Shown here: positions 1,644-58,889 of the stretch, piece after piece | Position numbering within the stretch: position 1 is the first letter of the stretch | How the letters are laid out: every line of letters begins with the position of its first letter | Source: Podarcis melisellensis | Taxonomy: Eukaryota | Length of the DNA stretch: 64,000 nt | Reading direction: 5' to 3' (one strand) | NCBI GenBank assembly: GCA_964234715.1 | Contig: OZ174281.1 | Notes under the pieces: generated by a model | The model's database searches: none | What the model was told of the DNA's origin: nothing | Seen by the model: the letters and a program-made list of their open reading frames with translations, nothing else | Program-made: the position numbers and the translations under genes

Positions 1644-1662
1644 CACCCTCCCCTGATTTTTA

Positions 1663-3300
1663 TTTTTTTTTTTAAATAATTTTTATTAAGGTTTTCCAAA
1701 TTAAAACAAATAAAATCCAATTCATAAACTTTTTCCAATATCCAGGACTTCCCCTCCCCACCCCCTCTTGTGTTCCAGATCTTCCAAAAAAGCAATAATA
1801 TTCAACAAATTCTTATTCCCAAAATACACTCATCATCAATAACTCAATTTATCCAAATTTCCATCCCCTAAGGTCGACCTCTTCCCTTCCACGAGTTCCC
1901 CCCTTTCAAATATAGTACAGATGAAAATAGAATAAAAACAAACAATAATTTTACAACCTTTGGATTCCAAATTTCCCTCCCCTCTTTCCCTGTTGCGTTC
2001 CTCCTATCCCTCCACTTCTAATGTCTTCCTGATGAACCCACATTTCACTAAACCCACATCCCTCTGGTTCTTTACCGGTCTTTTTTTTTTAAATTACAGA
2101 TGTCCAATCATAGAAGGAGTCTATCAAAGGGGGCCCATTTCTTCTATCCAGATTTTTATATCCAGGAGTATAAACTCCAATTTTATATCCATAAGCTTGT
2201 CAAATCTGGATATCCCAAATGTTCCCACTCCAGTTCTGTCCAGTTCTTGTTGTTTCCTTGTTCTTGTCAATCACTCTCCTCCTTTTTACTTCCCTGTTCC
2301 CTCACAGAAATGTTCTTTTTCCAAAGGCTTCTAGTGTCTCTACAGAGGCTTGTTATTCAGGAGCAAAACATAATCCATTGTTTCCAGTAAAGTGTAGGCC
2401 TCTGTAGACAAAATAATGTTCCATTTCTGCAGTTTCCCAGGAGATTAAAAGTTCTATCCAACTGTTCAAGTTTCCCGTCGAAAACACATGCAATGTCCCT
2501 CAGCTCCTCTAGGTGGATTACAATAACAAAGTTCCCTTCCAGATCACATCCGCCAGTCCAAATAACTTATAAATCCTTATTTGAAACAATTTATCTCCAA
2601 TTTATAACAAATGTAACCGGCAAAGTCCTCATAACAAAGTCTCAATTTCATTCTTCCGTTTTGACAGCTCTTTGACAGCTGTCAAAACCTCCGTTATTCT
2701 TCTCCAGGCATTTTCCCGAATCGCTCCAGGGGTTCCGGGGGGGTTGCTTTTTAATACGAATTCCACTTTTCTCCTCCAGCTCAATCTTATAAATTTCCCT
2801 CGCGAAGTTGCTAGTTCGGCAAGATAAGGTTCCTCTCGATCTTAGTTATCCAGTCCTTTGTTTTGGCTCTTCTACAATTTGGGGGGGGTGCTGACTTCCT
2901 TTTTTCCTCCTCCCCCGTTCGCTCCAAATTCTAAAAATTTATCCCTCTTTTTAGTCCATATTCCAATTACTCACGGGTTCTTCTTTTGGGTCCAAATTTT
3001 CAATAGAAGAAGTCAGCGCTCTCCGCCGGATGGCATGCGGCTGCGCTCGGCAGGGATAGCAGAGGACTCAAAGCACCACGCTCCTCCCCGGCACCCGATC
3101 CGTAGCCTTTAAAAAGGCTCCTTCACGAATCGAGAGGGCGCTGACGGTGCCAGCCGAGTCTCCATGTCCACGGCCTCCGTGGCCGTGGTTTTTAAGGGTC
3201 CCCGCATCGCCGGTGCGGTAGGACCCAGCCCCTGCCGAGCAGGCTCCCTCCGGAGCTCGGAGGGAGCCCGCCATTCGGCGATGGCGCCGACCCGGAAGTC
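1663..3300 (-). mobile_element. Non-autonomous L1-like (TPRT) retroelement, apparently full-length, no long ORF
   Basis: 19-bp TSD caccctcccctgattttta (1644-1662, 3301-3319); AATAAA plus A-rich tail at the 1663 end; CpG-rich 5' end starting GACTTCCGG; target CT/AAAAA fits L1 endonuclease preference. Confidence 0.85.
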
Positions 3301-6300
3301 CACCCTCCCCTGATTTTTAGAGCATTATAGCTGGAGTCACCCATGCTTCTGAGGAAAAATAACATGAGTGGAGACAGAATTGACTCCACCCCCAGTTATC
3401 AAGGTTACATTTGCCAAACTAAAATGCATCCAATTCTAAACATTTCCATTATTTCCAGAATGTATAGGCCCTATGGAGCCCCAATGTTCAGAAGAAGAAC
3501 CACCCCCCATTTACTTTGCAAAACATTTGAAATTTCAAAAGGGTACTTTGGGGCTCCAAATTAGGATTTCTAAGTCAGTATGTGCATTTCACGTATGTTA
3601 ATGGTGAGCAAAATATTATATACTAACTAGATTCCCGCCTCTATATAGTATATCTATGTATTTTGTGGTATTGAGATTATAGAACGTTTAGTGTCTGAAG
3701 TATGCGTTTAATGTGTATTTTTAAACAAATTTATGGCAATTAATTATTTGGAGAATAGGGTATCACATTTCAATTTGTAAAGATCTTTTTAACTTTAACT
3801 TTTAAAATGCTTTGTACAATGCAAAACTGTAACTGGAGAAACTAAGTTTAATAAATATCAAATAGATTTTCTGTATTAAACTTTTAAAAGAAGAAGAGGA
3901 GGAAGAGGAGGAGGAAGGAGTGTAGCAACTAGCAAGTGTGCAACATGGCCCTCTCGTGGACTGAGGCATTTTTAAATAAAGATGGGATCCACCCCCCCTC
4001 GCACACACTTTTGTTAAATATAGTATTTTCTCAGGTACATTGGCTATATTAAGAGGAGGCCGGTTTGTTTTGAACGATACCGTTCTGTGCGAGGATTGCA
4101 GACTCTAGACATGCGCCAGCGCACAGCGGGTGGCAGACATCACTCCTTCAAGAACAGGAGAAGCCCACCAGGCCTCCTCCTTCCCCCAACTGTTTGCAAA
4201 AGAAAGGTGAATCATTGCTGCAAGCATCTTTCTCTGCAGGCGATCGGGCTGAATAACAATCTACATGATCCCCAGCAGAAAATGAGGCTTCCAGCATCTT
4301 AACTTTGCAAACAGCTGTGTGGCGGGGGGGGGGGAGGGGGGGAGAGGACTCTGGCAAGGTTTTTCCCTTTTCCAAGGAAGCTGTCATATTCCCGGCTCCC
4401 AGGGTGTGTGTTCTCTGATCCTTGGGTAATGAGACAGTAGGCAGTGGAAGGCAGAGCTTGGAAAACGTTCAGCAGTAATTAGGTTCTTGCAACATCCCAG
4501 ATGTGGTCACCCTGATAGGGTGTGGGAAAAACTGTGTGGCACAGCCCTTGTGCCACTTTCCAGAGGTAGTTGCGTGGGATAACTAATTCATCTGAGTGCA
4601 ATGTTCCTTAAAACAGCTCGTCATGGACAAAATACTTTTGATGCAATATTGACGGAAATACGACCTACCCAGTTAAGTTAAGATGTTAACATCTTTTCAG
4701 GTACTGGTAACTCGCAACTTATGCACATTTAACTTGTCCGCATTGAGCTTTACACATTTGGCAATTAAAGAAAAATTAAAAAGGAAGGCCAGCTGCCGTT
4801 GCACCCAATGTGTTTTGACTATATGCAATTTTGGCTTTATGTGCTGTCCCAGGAATGTAAACTATCGTACGTTGAAAGTCACCTGTATACCCTTCTTGCA
4901 CAACAAGTTTCACTCAAAGATAAATCAGAAAGTTTTTAATGTCTGGCATTTTATTATATTTTTATATGTGCTGGAAACTGCCCAGAGTGACTGGGGTGTA
5001 AGTAATAAAATTATTGTTATCCTTATTGTTATTACCTACCTAAGCAAGCAGTTGGCTGTTCTACATTTAGGAAGTCAGCACTTCTGACACAGACAGATCC
5101 CTTGTAGTGGTTGCTCAGTAATGGAAGCCACAGGTTCAGTAACTTCCAAAACCAGCTGCATATAAAGTGAGCACTTGTCACTCAACACTCGCCACTGGTC
5201 GGACCTGGTAGGCCAGCTCTTAGTGTATATCATTATAATGCTAAGGGCTGATATACCATGGGAGACCAGGGTTCTGTCTTGTCCTGTATTCTCTGCAGTA
5301 GAAAGGGTTGTGGGTTAGGTGTGTATTTATGCACACATTTCTAAAATATGCTGCTTTGCCAAAGACCTAGTTGCAATGAAGAGTACTAAAAATAAAATTT
5401 GCATATTACTAAACTTTAATATAAGGGCTTTTTTTAAAAAAAATAGGAAGTTGTAAGGTAACAAAAACAAGGATATATGTTCTTTTCCGTTCCATTATAT
5501 TAATTCTCCAGAACCAGTACAGGGTATGACACATAATATACAGACAACCAAGATGGAAATTATTTCTCACCTATTATAGTTGGCCCTCCATTGGTTAATC
5601 AGTAGATTAATCAAGTGAAATTGTAGCTGACAAGTGTGCAACTCTAATATTGCTAAATGTTGGCAAAATCCTGGTTTTGCTCAAAAGTAATTCTTATTGT
5701 GTTAATCAGGATTTGGTCCTTAAAGAGTGTTTAAACTGGTTAAACCCATAAATTAAAAGCCTTTCCATCAATTAATACTTCCAGAAGCGAACTGGATTGT
5801 GATACATCCTTTGTTTTCCAGGGAGTGAAGCACAGCTGCCATTTATCCCAATCACCGACATCCTATTTAGACTTGTGTCCTCCACACCCACTTCCATGGC
5901 CTCAAAACAAAGTACATTCCTTTCTGAGAAAGGATCTTCAAACGCTATCTTGCTTACATTCAAACAAAGTCATTACCCAACTTCGGCTCAGCCTACCCAA
6001 TAACATGCCAGAGTGCAACCCAAACTCACTTCCTCCAAACAGTGTGCAGCGCATTGAAGTCACAACATACCATCTGCCTACCATCCTGTTTACCAGTCTC
6101 ACTGACCCAGACTTCCTCCCACTCATCATTCCTCCTCCTCCTCCTCTAAAATAACTCCACTAGCCATACATGATACAACACCAACTTCCCAGGCAATTAT
6201 CGCAAAATAGAAAACAGGCAGTTATAATCCTTGTCATAGCAAACTTCATGTCAAATTAAACAGAGCCTGCCCTAACATATGTGAGAATTTTTTGGGGGTG

Positions 6301-6999: not shown

Positions 7000-7913
7000 C
7001 TGGATGATGGACTCAAGGGCATCCTGATCAAATTTGCAGATGACACCAAACTGGGAGGGGTGGCTAACACCTCAGAAGACAGGCTCACACTTCAAAACGA
7101 CCTTGACAGATTAGAGAACTGGGCCAAAACAAACAAGATGAATTTTAACATGGAGAAATGTAAAGTATTGCACTTGGGCAAAAAAAAATGAAAAAAAAAA
7201 TGAGAGGCACAAATACAAGATGGGTGACACCTGGCTTGAGAGCAGTACATGTGAAAAGGATCTAGGAGTCTTGGTTGACCACAAACTTGACATGAGCCAA
7301 CAGTGTGAAGCGGCAGCTAAAAAAGCCAATGCAATTCTGGGCTGCATCAAGTATAGCATCTAGATCAAGGGAAGTAATAGTGCCACTGTATTCTGCTCTG
7401 GTCAGACCTCACCTGGAGTACTGTGTCCAGTTCTGGGCACCACAGTTCAAGGACACTGACAAACTGGAACATGTCCAGAGGAGGGCAACCAACCACGGTC
7501 AACGGCCTGGAAACGATGCCTTATGAGGAACGGCTAAGGGAGCTGGGCATGTTTAGCCTGGAGAAGAGGAGGTTAAGGGGTGATATGATAGCCATGTTCA
7601 AATATATAAAAGGATGTCACATAGAGGAGGGAGAAAGGTTGTTTTCTGCTGCTCCAGAGAAGCGGACACGGAGCAATGGATCCAAACTACAAGAAAGAAG
7701 ATTCCACCTAAACATTAGGAAGAACTTCCTGACAGTAAGAGCTGTTCGACAGTGGAATTTGCTGCCAAGGAGTGTGGTGGAGTCTCCTTCTTTGGAGGTC
7801 TATAAGCAGAGGCTTGACAACCATATGTCAGGAGTGCTCTGATGGTGTTTCCTGCTTGGCAGGGGGTTGGACTCGATGGCCCTTGTGGTCTCTTCCAACT
7901 CTATGATTCTATG
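7000..7913 (+). mobile_element. CR1 LINE, 5'-truncated (RT C-terminal half to 3' end)
   Basis: IKFADDT RT motif at ~7027-7048; [19 protein letters not shown]; CTATGATTCTATG tail; flanking ttgttttatt duplication. Confidence 0.95.
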
Positions 7914-16384: not shown

Positions 16385-17739
16385 AGTCCAGAGGGTGCCA
16401 ACAGGGTGTTGGCCACCAACGCCAGGTATTCTGGAAGACCACTCCCATCCCTAAGCATGTTGGCTGGGGCTGAGGATTATGGGTTTGGCCCATGATCCAT
16501 GACCTAGTCTTTTGCCCTGTAGGTCCCACTGATTTGTTGCAACCCAGACTTTTGGCCAAAGGCCTATGCTGGCTGAGATGCTTTCAAATCCCCAAGGAAA
16601 GCACCTGTTATCTACACCTGGCTTTGTTAGACCAATTTTCCCTTCCTCTTACAACTGGCTTAGCAAGACCATTCTCCAACTCATTTAGGTGTAAACACAT
16701 TAGCATATACAAAGCTATTCAGCAGGGCTTAGGCCTCCTGGCTCCTATTTGGAAGCAGGTTCTGCCTATAGGGATACAGTGGTGGTGGTCTTTTGTAGCA
16801 TTTGATTCTGGGAAACACATAGATAACAGATCTGCCTTAAGGCAACTCAGAAAGCAATAAAGATTTCTTTAGAAGTCCTAGAACTCCTTGGGGTCACCAG
16901 CAGCTGGCAATGGCAGTTAACTCATGACTTCCCTATCAAAATATCAAACCCCCCTACCTTACTAGAAGAGGCTATAGGATGAAAGCCATACACTGAAAAC
17001 ACTGTGCACAGGAAATAAAAGCTCTCCGGGCAACAGAACACACACACACAGGAACACCAGGAAGCACAAATGAGAATTAGGGCTTGGGGTCGAAATCAGA
17101 TTGTGCTGTGCAAAACCCTTAAAACAGCAGCTACCTAATTCACGTAGTGATGGCAGATAAAAGGCACAAACTTATTCTCTGGTCTCAAATATTGTGTTGG
17201 AAAGAATGCTTGGATGTTGCTGCAGTTTTTTTTATAAAAAAAATAATCATTGGTTGGGTAACACATAAGAAACATTCAGTACTAGCGCTGGGAAAATGAG
17301 AGGTCCCCAGATGCTGGACTAGAAACTTACAGTAACCACAAACGGGAGGAGGAAAATAGAGCATGATTCATAGTTAGTATCTGCATACGAGGCTGCATAT
17401 AACTAGCTGTAAAGGGGACTCCGCCTCACCCCACCCTTCCAGCCCCTCAAAGAGGTCGGGTTAAGAGCGAATGGCAACAAGTAATCCGGCAACAATACAG
17501 CAAATGGCTTTTTGCACAATCAAATCCATACAGCCCCTCTCGCAGGGCACACCTAACCCATCCCTCACTCCTAGGAACATCCTCATAGGATACACACGCA
17601 TTCCATGCTCCTCCTCCATAGGAAGGTACATGCACCGCCACCACATTCTTCCAGCCTGCCTCACCCCCCCCCCCGGGATACCCAGGGGCGCCTCTTTTCT
17701 GTGCACCTTCCACGTCTCCCCTTCTTCCACCCATCGTAC

Positions 17740-20700
17740 TTCATCTGCGCGCACACACACTCCGATTCATCGACGACACGCTACGGGCGCGAGTTCTCAC
17801 CGAAAGCGTACGCCAGCGCTGAAACCCGGGTCTCCATGCATGCCCACTTCCTTTACATGCCCAACACCTGAAGTTCACCTCAGACCTGTCCGCTCTTGCA
17901 TGCACACGCACCCCGTTCGCCTTCCTCCTCTTTCGGGCGTATTCCCCAGCCTTCCCTTGGGCTGCCTTCTGCTCCTTCCCCAGGCACTCCTCGGGGTCTC
18001 TACACCCGAACCCGCTGCGCGGCAGCACCCTTTCCCGTGCAGACGCTCCTCCAGACCCCAACCCCGGAGCAGCAATGCCCCGGACAGAGCGTGTGTGGGG
18101 GGGGGGGGACCTGGCAAGGGCGAGAATGCAACGCACTTTTCACCCGGGGAAGAGGAGGCGCGCTTGCCGCCTCGGCCATCCGCGCGCAGGAACGAAGCAC
18201 GAGCGCCAGCCAGGGCAGCTGCCAGCCTCGCCCGCCCGCGCCCCCCCCTCGCCGCACCAGCAAAACACGCGCAGTCCGAAAAGGCGCTTGCAGGGATGCC
18301 ACGTCCCCGGAGCCCGCACACAGGCAGGGCATTCCGGGGCAGGGGCAGGCGTCGGGGCGGGCGGGGGGGGGCACACGAGCGAAGCGGAGTTCTCGCCACC
18401 CCCAGCACCCAACAAGTGGCAGGAGGCGAGGGGGCTTGGGTCCTGGCAGGAGCCCGACTACTTGCCCCCCTTTCTGATCCGGGAGGGGGCGCACGCAGCG
18501 CATCGGGGTGCAGCCATCGGGGGGAAGCCAGGCGTCGCCCACAAACGCCTCCCTGTCGTCGTCGTCCCCCCCGCTGCTTCTCGCCTGTAACGGGAGGGGG
18601 TATCAATGTGCGCGGAGCCCTCACTGCCTCCCCCCCCCCCGGGAGCTGCTTCCGATTTCGGGGGCGCTCCTGTCTCCGCAGATTGGAAAAGATTCATCGA
18701 GACCCCGATCCGTGAAAAAACAGGGTGCCGAAAAGGAGGGGCGCGCGCGGGGGGGAGAGAATGAATCGAATTGGCTCCGGGAGGGAGAGCAGCAACGGAG
18801 GCGCCGCAGCTCGCGGGGGGGGGGGGGCGCGAAGCAGCTGGATGCGGCGAGAGGAAGAAGGACCCGGCGCAGGACCGCAGGCGAGTCGCCCGCCGGCTGC
18901 AGCAAAAACTTGACCCCCACAAGCTGCCTACCAAGTATCGCCATCCTCGCCCCTCCACCCACCCCTCGCCCGTCCGTCTTCGGGGAGCTGCGCGGCTGCT
19001 CGCCCGCCGCTGCTCCCGCCACCCGCAGCCTCGAGCGGGCGCCTGCCTCGCTCGCTTCCCTCCAGCCCGGCGCCCGCATTCCGACACAGCCGCGAGCCGA
19101 GCGCGGTCCTCCGCCGCGGGGTCCGCCCTGGCCGCTTCCCGCCTGCCCGCCGCGCTTCCTTACTTCGCGGCGCCCGGGGCTTCCTCCTGGCTCGCCGCTC
19201 CTCGCCGGGCATCTTCGCCTCCCGCCGCTGCTCTCCGCAGCAAATCCGCCAGCAGCCGGGCTCTCCGAGCCCCCCGCGCCGTCGCGCTCCGCTCCAAATC
19301 CGCGCCGCTCCGTTCAGTCCCTTCCACCCGAAGGAAGCCCTCCCTCCTGCCCCGCTCGCCCGCGCCACGAGCCCAGCCAAGCAGCCGCTGCTGCCGGGGC
19401 GCGCGCCGAGCCGGGCTGTGTCCGAGCCGGAGCTGCTCTCTCGGTGTGTGTGAGGAGGAAGTGCAGGGGAAGCGCAGCCCAGGGATTGCATCGCCCCCCC
19501 CGCCCGCTCCTCTCGCGCGCGCGCGCCGCCGCCGCCTCCCTCTCCGCGCTCGCTCGCTCCCTCCCGGCTGGCCGCCTCCTCCTCCTCCTCCTCGCCGCCG
19601 TCCTCGCTGCCCGGGGAGAGGGAGGCGGAGCTCCGGCGCCTTGGCAGAGCCGGTGCCCAAGCCAAGCTCCGCGCGGAGGTGGCCGCAGCGCCAGCGACCC
19701 AGCCAGCCTCGCGTGCCTTAGCCGAGCCCAGCCGAGGAAGGGAACAAGCCCTCCCCGAGCGCCTTCGGGAGCATCATCGCGACCGGCGCGCCGCCTCGGG
19801 CCCCCTGTTCGCGGCCGCTGACTTGCCTGCTTGGGGGGAAGCGATGGGCAGCCCCGCGCTGCCCGGGGAATTCGCGGCGAGATGCCCGCCCGCCCGCCCC
19901 GAGGATTTGCAGCCCGTCGCTGCAGCTGCCCGAGCCGCGAGGTCGCGCGCTGGCGCCCGGCAGCAGGAGGCGTCCCACTCGCGGCGGCGGCGGCGGCCAC
20001 GGCCACTAGGGGCGCGCGAGGCCTGCTCCCCACGAGACGCGGACCAGGCCTGCGCGCCCGCCCGCCCGCCCGCCTGCCTGCCCTGCTGGCCGGAGCCGCT
20101 TGGAGCGCCGCCTGCCCGCCGTTCGCTCTCCCCGCGTGACTCCCGCTGACCTTGCCCCCGCCAGCCCCGCCGCGCGCCCTCCCCTCCCCCTCCTCCCCCG
20201 CTGTCCTCGCGGCCGGTTCCGGTGAGTCACCCGCGCGTCGCCGGCTGCACCTGCCGGGGGAGGAGGGAGCGAGCTGGGACTGCGCACCTGCCCAGCCGCC
20301 CGCCCTTCCCCCTCGCCGCCACTGCAGCAACCCCCGAGGGGGCTGGCCAGTGCCATGCCGATGCCCCTCGGGGATCGCGCGGCGGAGCTGCCCTCGGGAT
20401 CCGTCTCCGGAGAGCCGCTTCCGAGCAGGCGGCGACCCTCCCGCGGGCCCTTTGGGGCGGGCGGGCGGGCGAGGGGCTTCCAGGGAGAACTCCGGGCTGG
20501 CGAGGCCAAGATGGTTGCCAGCTGCCCCGGCATCCAGGGCGGCCGAGAAAACCGCGGGCACTCACACGCGGGGAAGCGGCTGCCGAGCGCCGGCTCCTGC
20601 TCTGCCCCTTTAAGCGGCGCGGGCCCCGCTCTGCCAGTGGTCCGGATTTCCAAGCTGGATTCTGGTCCTTTGCCAAGGACTGAGCGCTCGTTAACATTCA

Positions 20701-21000
20701 GCCTGGCGCTCCCGGTGCCAAGCTGCCAGGCTCCAGAGATCCCTGGCTCTTGGGCCCCTGCAGGCCGGCCGCGTCAGACAACTCAGCAGGCGCCTTGCGG
20801 AGCCCTCCCGGGGTGGGGGGCTGCCGGGCTGCCCTGCTGGCGAGCTCCCAAGTCCGCACGGTGTACTTTCTAGCATCGTTAGGAGTAGATTAGAGGCAGA
20901 GCCAACCTGTTAAAAACACGTGTTGCTTCTTTCCTGCAGCTCCAGATTTTTTACATGCTGCTCAGCTCTATGAACCTGTTGCGCAGCGCAGCCCCCGCGT
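17740..21000. promoter_or_regulatory. Large CpG island, probable promoter and first-exon region of an unidentified host gene(s)
   Basis: Very high GC and CpG density against a CpG-depleted background; (GCC)n/(CCT)n runs and GC boxes; splice-like motifs on both strands. Confidence 0.9.
18932..18944 (-). CDS. Candidate short first coding exon (MAIL+G) of a minus-strand gene
   Basis: aggATGGCGATACTTG|gtaggc: strong Kozak context followed by a GT donor inside the CpG island; gene not recognised. Confidence 0.3.
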
Positions 21001-58158: not shown

Positions 58159-58742
58159 CTAAAGCTCATCAAGGCTGCTCACGATCTGTTGACCTTCTTG
58201 AGCAACTGCCTGCCACTCTTCCTTGCTCTTTCTGATCTCCTCCTGCAGGTCTGCAATTCTCTTCTGACCAGCCAGCATGGCTTCAGCCAACCGTGAGTTC
58301 GCCTCTTCCTTTTCTTTTATGGCCTTTTGTAGGAATCTGTGCTGCTTCAGAAGGAATGGTACAATAGCACTGTGGACGTCTTCCTCTGGGATTCCCCTGG
58401 TGTACCCCTTTTCTTTGCTTCTTCCACAAGTTCAACTAGTGATTTAAAGAGCACACTGAGATTCCCCTCTTCCTTCAGATCCTGGATCTTATCCCGAAAG
58501 GAGGTTTGCAGGTGGGAGATCAACTGATTGTAAACACACTTGGTGAGTTCAGGTTGCACTTTGTAAAGACGACTGTAACACTTCGCAAACCTATGGTAGC
58601 TGCCTGCTTCCACAATCTTCTGCAAGGAAACGTTGACGATGTAGTTCAGGAATTGCTCCCGGCTGGGGTTGGTCAGTGGCTCAACAGCAGCAGCAGCAGC
58701 GTCGGCGGCCTCCTTCTCCCCCTCAGCCACCTCAGTTGCCAT
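58159..58742 (-). pseudogene. PMF1: Processed pseudogene of polyamine-modulated factor 1 (Nnf1, MIS12 kinetochore complex)
   Basis: Intronless; LQKIVEAGSYHRFAKCY...QLISHLQTSFRDKIQDLKEEGNL then a frameshift near 58397 (AWRPS lost), continuing GIPEEDVHSAIVPFLLKQ...SLDEL*. Confidence 0.88.
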
Positions 58743-58889
58743 TTTAGGCCCGCCACAAATCCGAATGCCTCCGAGTCTGCCTTTGAATATATATATGGGA
58801 GAAGTTAATTGTTTGCTTGCAATTCTGCTTACCAGAGTCATGTCCCAGTGCATCTAGTGGACTAGCCTCAACTGTGGTATTTCTGAATA

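Follow-up and report, generated by a model that had tools for sequence, protein, structure and literature searches.

A young ORF-less retroelement family of Podarcis melisellensis, probably derived from a half-L1 (HAL1-like) lineage

The stretch of Podarcis melisellensis DNA analysed here (64,000 nt, hereafter the window) carries a young member of an amplifying, abundant and near-identical family of non-autonomous retroelements without open reading frames (ORFs). In our reading, which we hold with a probability of about 0.85, the element is a young copy of an ORF-less family that arose from a half-L1 (HAL1-like) derivative of one L1 lineage and that likely uses the ORF1p and ORF2p of intact L1s in the same genome.

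Direct reading of the locus (Table 1) bore out the main landmarks of an earlier sequence-only reading, namely a perfect 19-bp target-site duplication, an AATAAA signal, an A tail, a CT/AAAAA target and an intact-looking start (GACTTCCGGGTCGGCGCCATC). The ETS and YY1 sites at this start are putative and named from motif likeness. The undecayed CpG claimed for some 300 bp was likewise found, the first 300 nt of the element holding 31 CpG at an observed/expected ratio of 0.89–1.03 (0.37 for the whole window). The longest sense frame of the window copy is 76 codons from stop to stop, in agreement with the claim of short sense ORFs only (<80 aa), and antisense frames reach 132 codons. An ATG at element position 27 opens a frame of 68 codons; in relatives this frame can have anything from 5 to 68 codons. 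ARAGORN detected no tRNA in the element, the single Rfam match (E = 0.31) lay far below the cut-off, and none of the 11 open frames had a Pfam match under E = 0.05; the element thus lacks a tRNA, 7SL or 5S head, as had been stated to set it apart from classical SINEs, and its head is L1-derived. The inner bound of the 5′ UTR (2486) was placed at the ORF start of collinear relatives. The GTGAGT block, presumably splice-donor-like, is kept from the L1 lineage through all families, and some contigs of sequencing run X15 (RNA by guess only) depart from the element a few bases beyond it.

Table 1. Features of the retroelement by position in the window
Feature	Position	Strand	Remark
Whole retroelement, 1638-nt variant	1663..3300	minus	Youngest in the length series of about 1703 > 1670 > 1638
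Target-site duplication, 5′-side copy	3301..3319	.	Perfect 19 bp
Target-site duplication, 3′-side copy	1644..1662	.	Perfect 19 bp
L1-derived 5′ UTR, 815 nt, presumed internal promoter	2486..3300	minus	L1 identity and ORF start of collinear relatives
CpG island	3001..3300	minus	94–97% identity with head of L225/L266 sister family
Conserved 5′ terminus GACTTCCGGGT	3290..3300	minus	Resembles the lizard clade-1 L1 start in the excerpt of PMC5381506
Short palindrome or candidate hairpin	3239..3271	minus	Kept across families, sequence nearly invariant
Conserved block, core GAGCGCTGAC, common to L1 lineage	3010..3024	minus	Family alignment
Conserved block with GTGAGT, common to L1 lineage	2968..2979	minus	Family alignment
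Shortened-ORF1 relic	2024..2485	minus	Start codon gone, frameshifts, longest open stretch 48 of 154 codons
TAA, in frame in ORF-bearing relative L256	2353..2355	minus	Present in 13/13 ORF-less rows
Relic of last ~45 ORF2 codons	1945..2023 (bounds approximate)	minus	Traced via L249 and L256
L1-derived 3′ UTR with G-rich motif	1675..1944 (5′ bound approximate)	minus	Alignments to L1 lineage
AATAAA polyadenylation signal	1682..1687	minus	Direct reading
A tail, 11 nt	1663..1673	minus	Direct reading

Next to the retroelement lies a 214-bp element (1430–1643) that is flanked by an 8-bp duplication (1422–1429 and 1644–1651) and ends in 12-bp terminal inverted repeats differing at one position. Tandem repeats of 22 nt occur in its interior, and we take it to be a likely hAT-type MITE. 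Its right duplication is formed by the first 8 nt of the 19-bp duplication of the retroelement, so both inserted at one spot. Elsewhere in the window, a long GC-rich stretch with many overlapping frames (17465–20873) is likely a CpG island with gene starts, a 168-codon frame (58347–58853) presumably resembles the first part of a PMF1-kind kinetochore gene, and the frame at 7381–7842 resembles, in our judgement, the C-terminus of a reverse transcriptase from a CR1-type LINE.

A genome search for copies with distinct target-site duplications, as the sequence-only reading had proposed, revealed an amplifying family. All 40 scored matches of the element showed 97–100% identity, and with a 281-nt 5′ query all 30 fetched loci went on as the same short element. 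Over 59 loci of the young family the mean pairwise divergence is 0.64% (range 0–1.6%); the copies fall into three length classes (about 1703, 1670 and 1638 nt) generated by deletions of 33 and 32 nt, and no sense frame exceeds 83 codons in any of them. A 3′ 30-mer specific to the young family (57 of the 59 known young copies carry it, and none of 50 older relatives does) gave 232 exact genome matches and its control none, whereas the 333 matches of a 5′ 30-mer were dropped as a measure of family size because older sister families carry it too; a degenerate pattern for older copies returned 0 matches. Among the first 30 copies by position, 27 reach the edge of the locus and three are 5′-truncated. 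One duplicated insertion on contig C19 accounts for 11 of the 59 loci, which leaves 49 distinct sites. Of these 49, T precedes the nick in 36 and A follows it in 43 (TT/AAAA nicks), and the duplication measures 16–19 bp in 34. At least one extra G beyond the element's own first G was found at 23 of the 49 sites; an extra 5′ G of this kind is taken as a reverse-transcribed cap in the excerpt of PMC4859970, which points, indirectly, to transcription by RNA polymerase II. A single-copy internally deleted L1 is ruled out by this amplified family with distinct sites. One locus considered as an ORF1 chimera (L112) proved to be a truncated copy that had inserted, with its own duplication, into the ORF1 of an old L1.

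The presumed donor lineage was reached through L1 comparisons. Searches by tblastn and blastn with 14 large and 30 small loci from a zf-RVT search yielded no real match except one copy of the element, a pattern for other L1 starts had 4 matches, and a Pfam Transposase_22 search of the genome was uninformative, with 0 matches for the query and for its controls. Of 45 further L1 loci a single one matched the element, and it led to L189 and what we call the parent lineage. L189 is a 6.2-kb L1 that matches the first 408 nt of the element at 61% (E = 9e-16) and the last ~210 nt at 62% (E = 3e-6). Heads of 18 out of 20 parent-lineage loci match that of the element at E = 7e-13 or better (61–63% over ~410–450 nt), and seven of the 20 have both frames open, with an ORF2 of 1248 codons. 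Among the 150 ORF1 matches listed, 76 share one identical score (hand count), which suggests a young subfamily. At the other end, the last 200 nt of the element score 45–72.5 against the 3′ UTRs of the parent lineage (n = 15) versus 20.5–39.5 against other L1s (n = 29) and 23–36 for shuffles. The parent lineage's own insertions show similar duplications and the extra G in the 13 loci where a duplication was found. These alignments support the derivation of both ends from one L1 lineage with intact copies in the same genome, read with the reservation that identity to the presumed donor is only ~62% and that other intact L1 lineages exist in the genome. Copies, sites and end alignments together thus uphold the earlier view of a non-autonomous family with L1 hallmarks and an L1-derived 5′ UTR and 3′ end. 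L189 itself (C19 near 21.2607 Mb) interrupts, with its own duplication, the end of ORF2 in L178, an L1 from a different lineage. This part of C19, at about 21–38 Mb, is a large segmentally amplified region in which one element insertion and several L1s recur in many identical copies (L008, L009, L015–L017, L019–L022, L024, L025, L178 and L189).

The hallmarks of the element match those of the parent lineage's own insertions. Mobilisation in trans by a partner LINE is presumed. RNA polymerase II would start at the kept L1 promoter and give a capped, polyadenylated RNA of 1.65 kb. L1 ORF2p would then bind the A tail of this RNA, probably aided by the kept lineage-specific 3′ end, nick the target at TT/AAAA and reverse-transcribe the RNA (target-primed reverse transcription), the likeliest source of the trans-acting ORF1p and ORF2p being the related lineage, which still has intact copies. 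Owing to the shortness of the RNA, most insertions are full length and include the promoter. That the lineage-specific 3′ end helps A-tail capture is the version we favour, at about even odds. Somewhat short of that stands plain abundance, by which any L1 ORF2p would take the RNA via its A tail as it does with a processed pseudogene, success would come solely from a strong germ-line promoter and shortness, and the 3′ end would be mere ancestry. This alternative accords with the intact frames of many L1 lineages in the genome, with the lower conservation across families of the 3′ end (0.61–0.73) than of the head (0.78–0.91) and with the lack of a consensus fold at the 3′ end across families. 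It is harder to square with a 3′ end that is still recognisable and lineage-specific, unlike the middle, and with HeLa cells, in which an unrelated tagged mRNA was rarely moved according to the excerpt of PMC11260458.

Relatives of the family were sought with a motif that excludes the young copies, which gave 957 further matches in the genome. Fifty were sampled (the first 30, 20 of them re-fetched longer, and 20 more picked for varied motifs), all from contigs C1 and C2. They form a ladder from a full L1 through an ORF1 fused to an ORF2 stub (HAL1-like) and a shrunken ORF1 to ORF-less forms. At its top stands L283, a 5.6-kb L1 whose start is nearly identical to that of the element. Relatives of ~2.1–2.2 kb carry an internally deleted ORF1, which in L249 runs into the last ~45 codons of ORF2; those of 1.8–2.0 kb have an ORF of 105–227 codons; and those of 1.66–1.75 kb, 11 of the first 30, are ORF-less. 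In a tree of 44 5′ UTRs the nine ORF-less rows form one clade (100/100) inside short-ORF rows, which in turn lie inside truncated-ORF1 rows; six rows labelled 'truncated' there are without a verified ORF, and two labelled 'short' (L276 and L277) have broken frames. L250, which has a full ORF1 and more of ORF2, falls among the truncated forms, which means that the rungs do not follow one another in strict single file.

The first 300 nt of the young family and of the L225/L266 family are 94–97% identical, while most of the rest is 44–77% identical, and a promoter (head) swap between these two ORF-less families is therefore likely from the alignment. Because of the swapped heads, the tree was rebuilt without the head, from 30 rows rooted on L283 and over a largely different stretch; the unverified rows, L232, L250, L260, L267 and four L1s of the intact lineage were omitted. 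The ORF-less clade was again recovered (100/100) with the same nesting, and the four states need three changes, the minimum. The shared TAA can be compared with three ORF-bearing rows that keep the segment. Families within the ORF-less clade differ from the young family by 13–30% and their own members from each other by 2–9%, which indicates that the loss of the ORF is old and that amplification continued afterwards. In the sample, the frame thus appears to have been lost once, in the founding lineage, before amplification and radiation into several families.

The history we propose would begin with an internal deletion that joined ORF1 to the last ~45 codons of ORF2. ORF1 would then have been shortened and eroded with its frame still open, until one lineage dropped the frame and divided into several families, the young family being the latest. 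Other deletion forms were met along the way. In L250 and L267 more of the ORF2 end survives (about 240 and 130 codons), preceded by an ORF1 that is full or eroded, which suggests several breakpoints or stages of deletion. L239/L255 (C1 near 121.896 Mb) combine the same kind of 5′ UTR with the last ~95 codons of ORF2 and show no ORF1 match, and L279 is 1329 nt long with a duplication and no ORF; these may be independent ORF1-less deletions.

The middle of the element yielded to analysis through its relatives. As claimed earlier, no ORF1 or ORF2 motifs appear in direct searches: none of the six frames of the element was matched by profiles built from 171 ORF1 and 20 ORF2 proteins, and frameshift-aware alignment with ORF1 and ORF2 of the intact lineage (L197) scored 36 against 35 ± 5 for shuffles, where L197 ORF1 artificially decayed by 33% substitutions and 5% indels scored 119–209 as a control. 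An early guess that the middle is mostly ORF2 was abandoned after this alignment, and a faint resemblance of the antisense strand to the ORF1 C-terminus (E = 0.005) was taken as chance, with no support from the profile and frameshift tests. An ORF1 relic is nevertheless recoverable with intermediate relatives. The ORF of L256, aligned across frameshifts, scores 65 with the window copy and 73 with the longest variant (shuffles 34–35.5, maximum 46), and that of L257 scores 52, while other single proteins failed to detect the relic (L275, 45; L282, 36–39; L252, 31; L249, 40–43; shuffle level). At the protein level the relic aligns over its first 33–60 codons only. A nucleotide alignment of 28 rows shows the element to be collinear with short-ORF relatives and so places the relic; the element shares 71% identity with L228 over its first 1010 nt. 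The relic is visible solely in frameshift-aware and nucleotide alignments; tblastn of the short ORFs on the element found nothing at E = 0.01.

The link to true ORF1 passes through the intermediates. Among 203 sequences, a profile of 12 short ORFs matches seven truncated ORF1s (E = 4e-6 to 5e-24) and, though weakly, true ORF1s (L283 ORF1, E = 1e-3), and the truncated ORF1s match ORF1 profiles (best L249, E = 6e-34). The ORF2 stub and 3′ UTR can be followed from L249 to L256 (148 versus a null maximum of 63) and from L256 to the element (148 versus 58), and without the intermediate step at 65 versus 56. On these alignments, the middle of the element is best read as the frameshifted remains of a shortened ORF1, behind which comes a relic of the ORF2 stub. 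The earlier description of a non-coding middle unlike HAL1 is therefore not sustained, the family being nested in HAL1-like relatives. An unrelated non-coding middle between an L1 5′ UTR and an L1-like 3′ UTR, with no HAL1 stage, would explain the empty profile and frameshift-aware searches with intact-L1 proteins; it is very improbable given the collinearity with ORF-bearing relatives such as L228, a relic alignment above every shuffle and trees that place the family inside those relatives. A processed pseudogene of a host gene was rejected in comparison with the L1 relatives, to which head, ORF relic and tail all align. A decayed HAL1 with a recoverable frameshifted ORF1, named earlier as a refuting outcome, holds as to origin; the element is not a dead HAL1 copy, since the ORF died in the founding lineage before amplification. 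Dead HAL1 copies, or spread by segmental duplication without retrotransposition after the ORF loss, have a negligible chance of being the explanation: the insertion site common to 11 of 59 loci on C19 fits such a spread, while an own duplication at each of the 49 distinct sites refutes it and a long frame is absent from all 59 copies at 0.64% divergence.

We then considered selection on the intermediate ORFs. In seven of the 14 short-grade rows the frame is open throughout; the rest keep 87–189 codons, compared with 48–93 in ORF-less rows. Of 46 indels in the short ORFs, 25 have a length divisible by three, versus 16 of 101 in the 5′ UTRs of the same pairs (p = 3e-6; some rows were used in more than one pair) and 25 of 94 in the ORF-less relic. 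Under neutral simulation the whole frame survived in 0–4% of runs when substitution was 12% and in 11% when it was 3%. The ratio of changes at 0-fold to 4-fold sites was 0.87 and 1.02 for the intermediate ORFs (p = 0.41 and 1.0; 170 and 231 four-fold sites), and 0.34 and 0.26 for L1 ORF1 controls (0.053/0.157 and 0.075/0.286). Purifying selection, read at first from Nei-Gojobori dN/dS values of 0.37–0.73 in 18 pairs of truncated or short ORFs, was rejected on account of this 0-fold versus 4-fold result. On the simplest reading, the intermediate ORFs would have been selected for an open frame and not for a protein; possibly, positive selection masks constraint.

Known systems were compared with the element as they are described in excerpts of the cited papers. 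Mammalian HAL1 likewise arose from L1 by internal deletion, retains the L1 5′ UTR and 3′ end, has lost ORF2 and bears L1 insertion hallmarks (PMC5753468, PMC3627910, PMC11260458). These excerpts report that HAL1 encodes ORF1p (PMC5753468) and keeps it over long periods (PMC3627910), and that an ORF1-only (half-L1) reporter in human cells needs functional ORF1p in cis, an RNA-binding mutant failing (PMC11260458). The element shares with HAL1 the origin from L1 by loss of ORF2, a multi-copy family with L1 insertion hallmarks and, in the sample, ancestors that carry ORF1 only. It differs in that no ORF1p is encoded (start lost, frameshifts, a shared stop, no frame above 83 codons in 59 copies) and the family has amplified without an ORF, in that its ORF-bearing relatives are without amino-acid selection, and in its lizard host, the HAL1 descriptions compared being mammalian.

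Bipartite non-autonomous LINEs are split in the excerpted 2018 survey (PMC5786205) into ORF1-present and ORF1-absent forms, the latter from RTE, Ingi, Vingi and R2 only. The ORF-absent forms described there (Bov-A, RTESINE, MAR4, RIME, NARTc and Vingi or R2 derivatives) resemble the element in being non-coding, in joining LINE 5′ and 3′ parts and in presumed RNA polymerase II transcription and mobilisation in trans. The element has the LINE 5′ end (61–63% over ~410–450 nt, 18/20 loci), the 3′ end of the same lineage (45–72.5, n = 15, versus 20.5–39.5, n = 29) and an amplifying master without coding capacity, and the extra 5′ G at 23/49 sites, the AATAAA and the CpG island are indirect signs of a putative internal RNA polymerase II promoter. 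Unlike those forms as surveyed, it derives from L1, is long (1.65 kb) and arose through slow erosion of an ORF1-bearing stage rather than one clean deletion. SVA and Sadhu, in the excerpts of PMC4494074, PMC2848041 and PMC4859970, are also long, non-coding, A-tailed and LINE-moved and have no small-RNA Pol III 5′ head, but SVA is composite, whereas the traceable parts of the element all lead to one L1 lineage, and Sadhu is described there as having no recognisable promoter. Lizard clade-1 L1s share the 5′ start GACTTCCGG...ATGGCG and a long CpG-rich 5′ UTR in the excerpt of PMC5381506; the spacing ahead of ATGGCG is longer in the element than in the consensus published there, and these L1s are autonomous, with two open frames and 6.2 kb in this genome, while the element has no intact ORF1 or ORF2. 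In our literature search no lizard ORF-less L1 derivative was described in titles or abstract openings, and Bao and Jurka 2010, the primary HAL1 paper, stood outside the comparison. The element fits the ORF-absent bipartite class with an L1 origin, and the family may already carry a library name in Repbase or Dfam.

Taken with the survey excerpt (PMC5786205), an ORF-less bipartite derivative of L1, a class unreported from L1 in 2018, is present here in about 230 young copies, and the family scatters full-length CpG-island promoters across the genome. Since this genome also holds ORF-bearing relatives and a likely intact donor, natural sequences could serve to test, step by step, cis-preference, 3′-end recognition and the part that translation plays in ORF2p capture. 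More tentatively, the genome may preserve the full route from L1 to half-L1, to a frame kept open only for translation of the RNA, and to no frame with amplification still going on. If so, lizard L1 proteins would be much less restricted than their human counterparts in acting in trans, or would recognise a lineage-specific 3′ end, the intermediate stage would have been selected for being translated and not for ORF1p itself, and an L1 would have turned into a SINE-like parasite without a small-RNA head.
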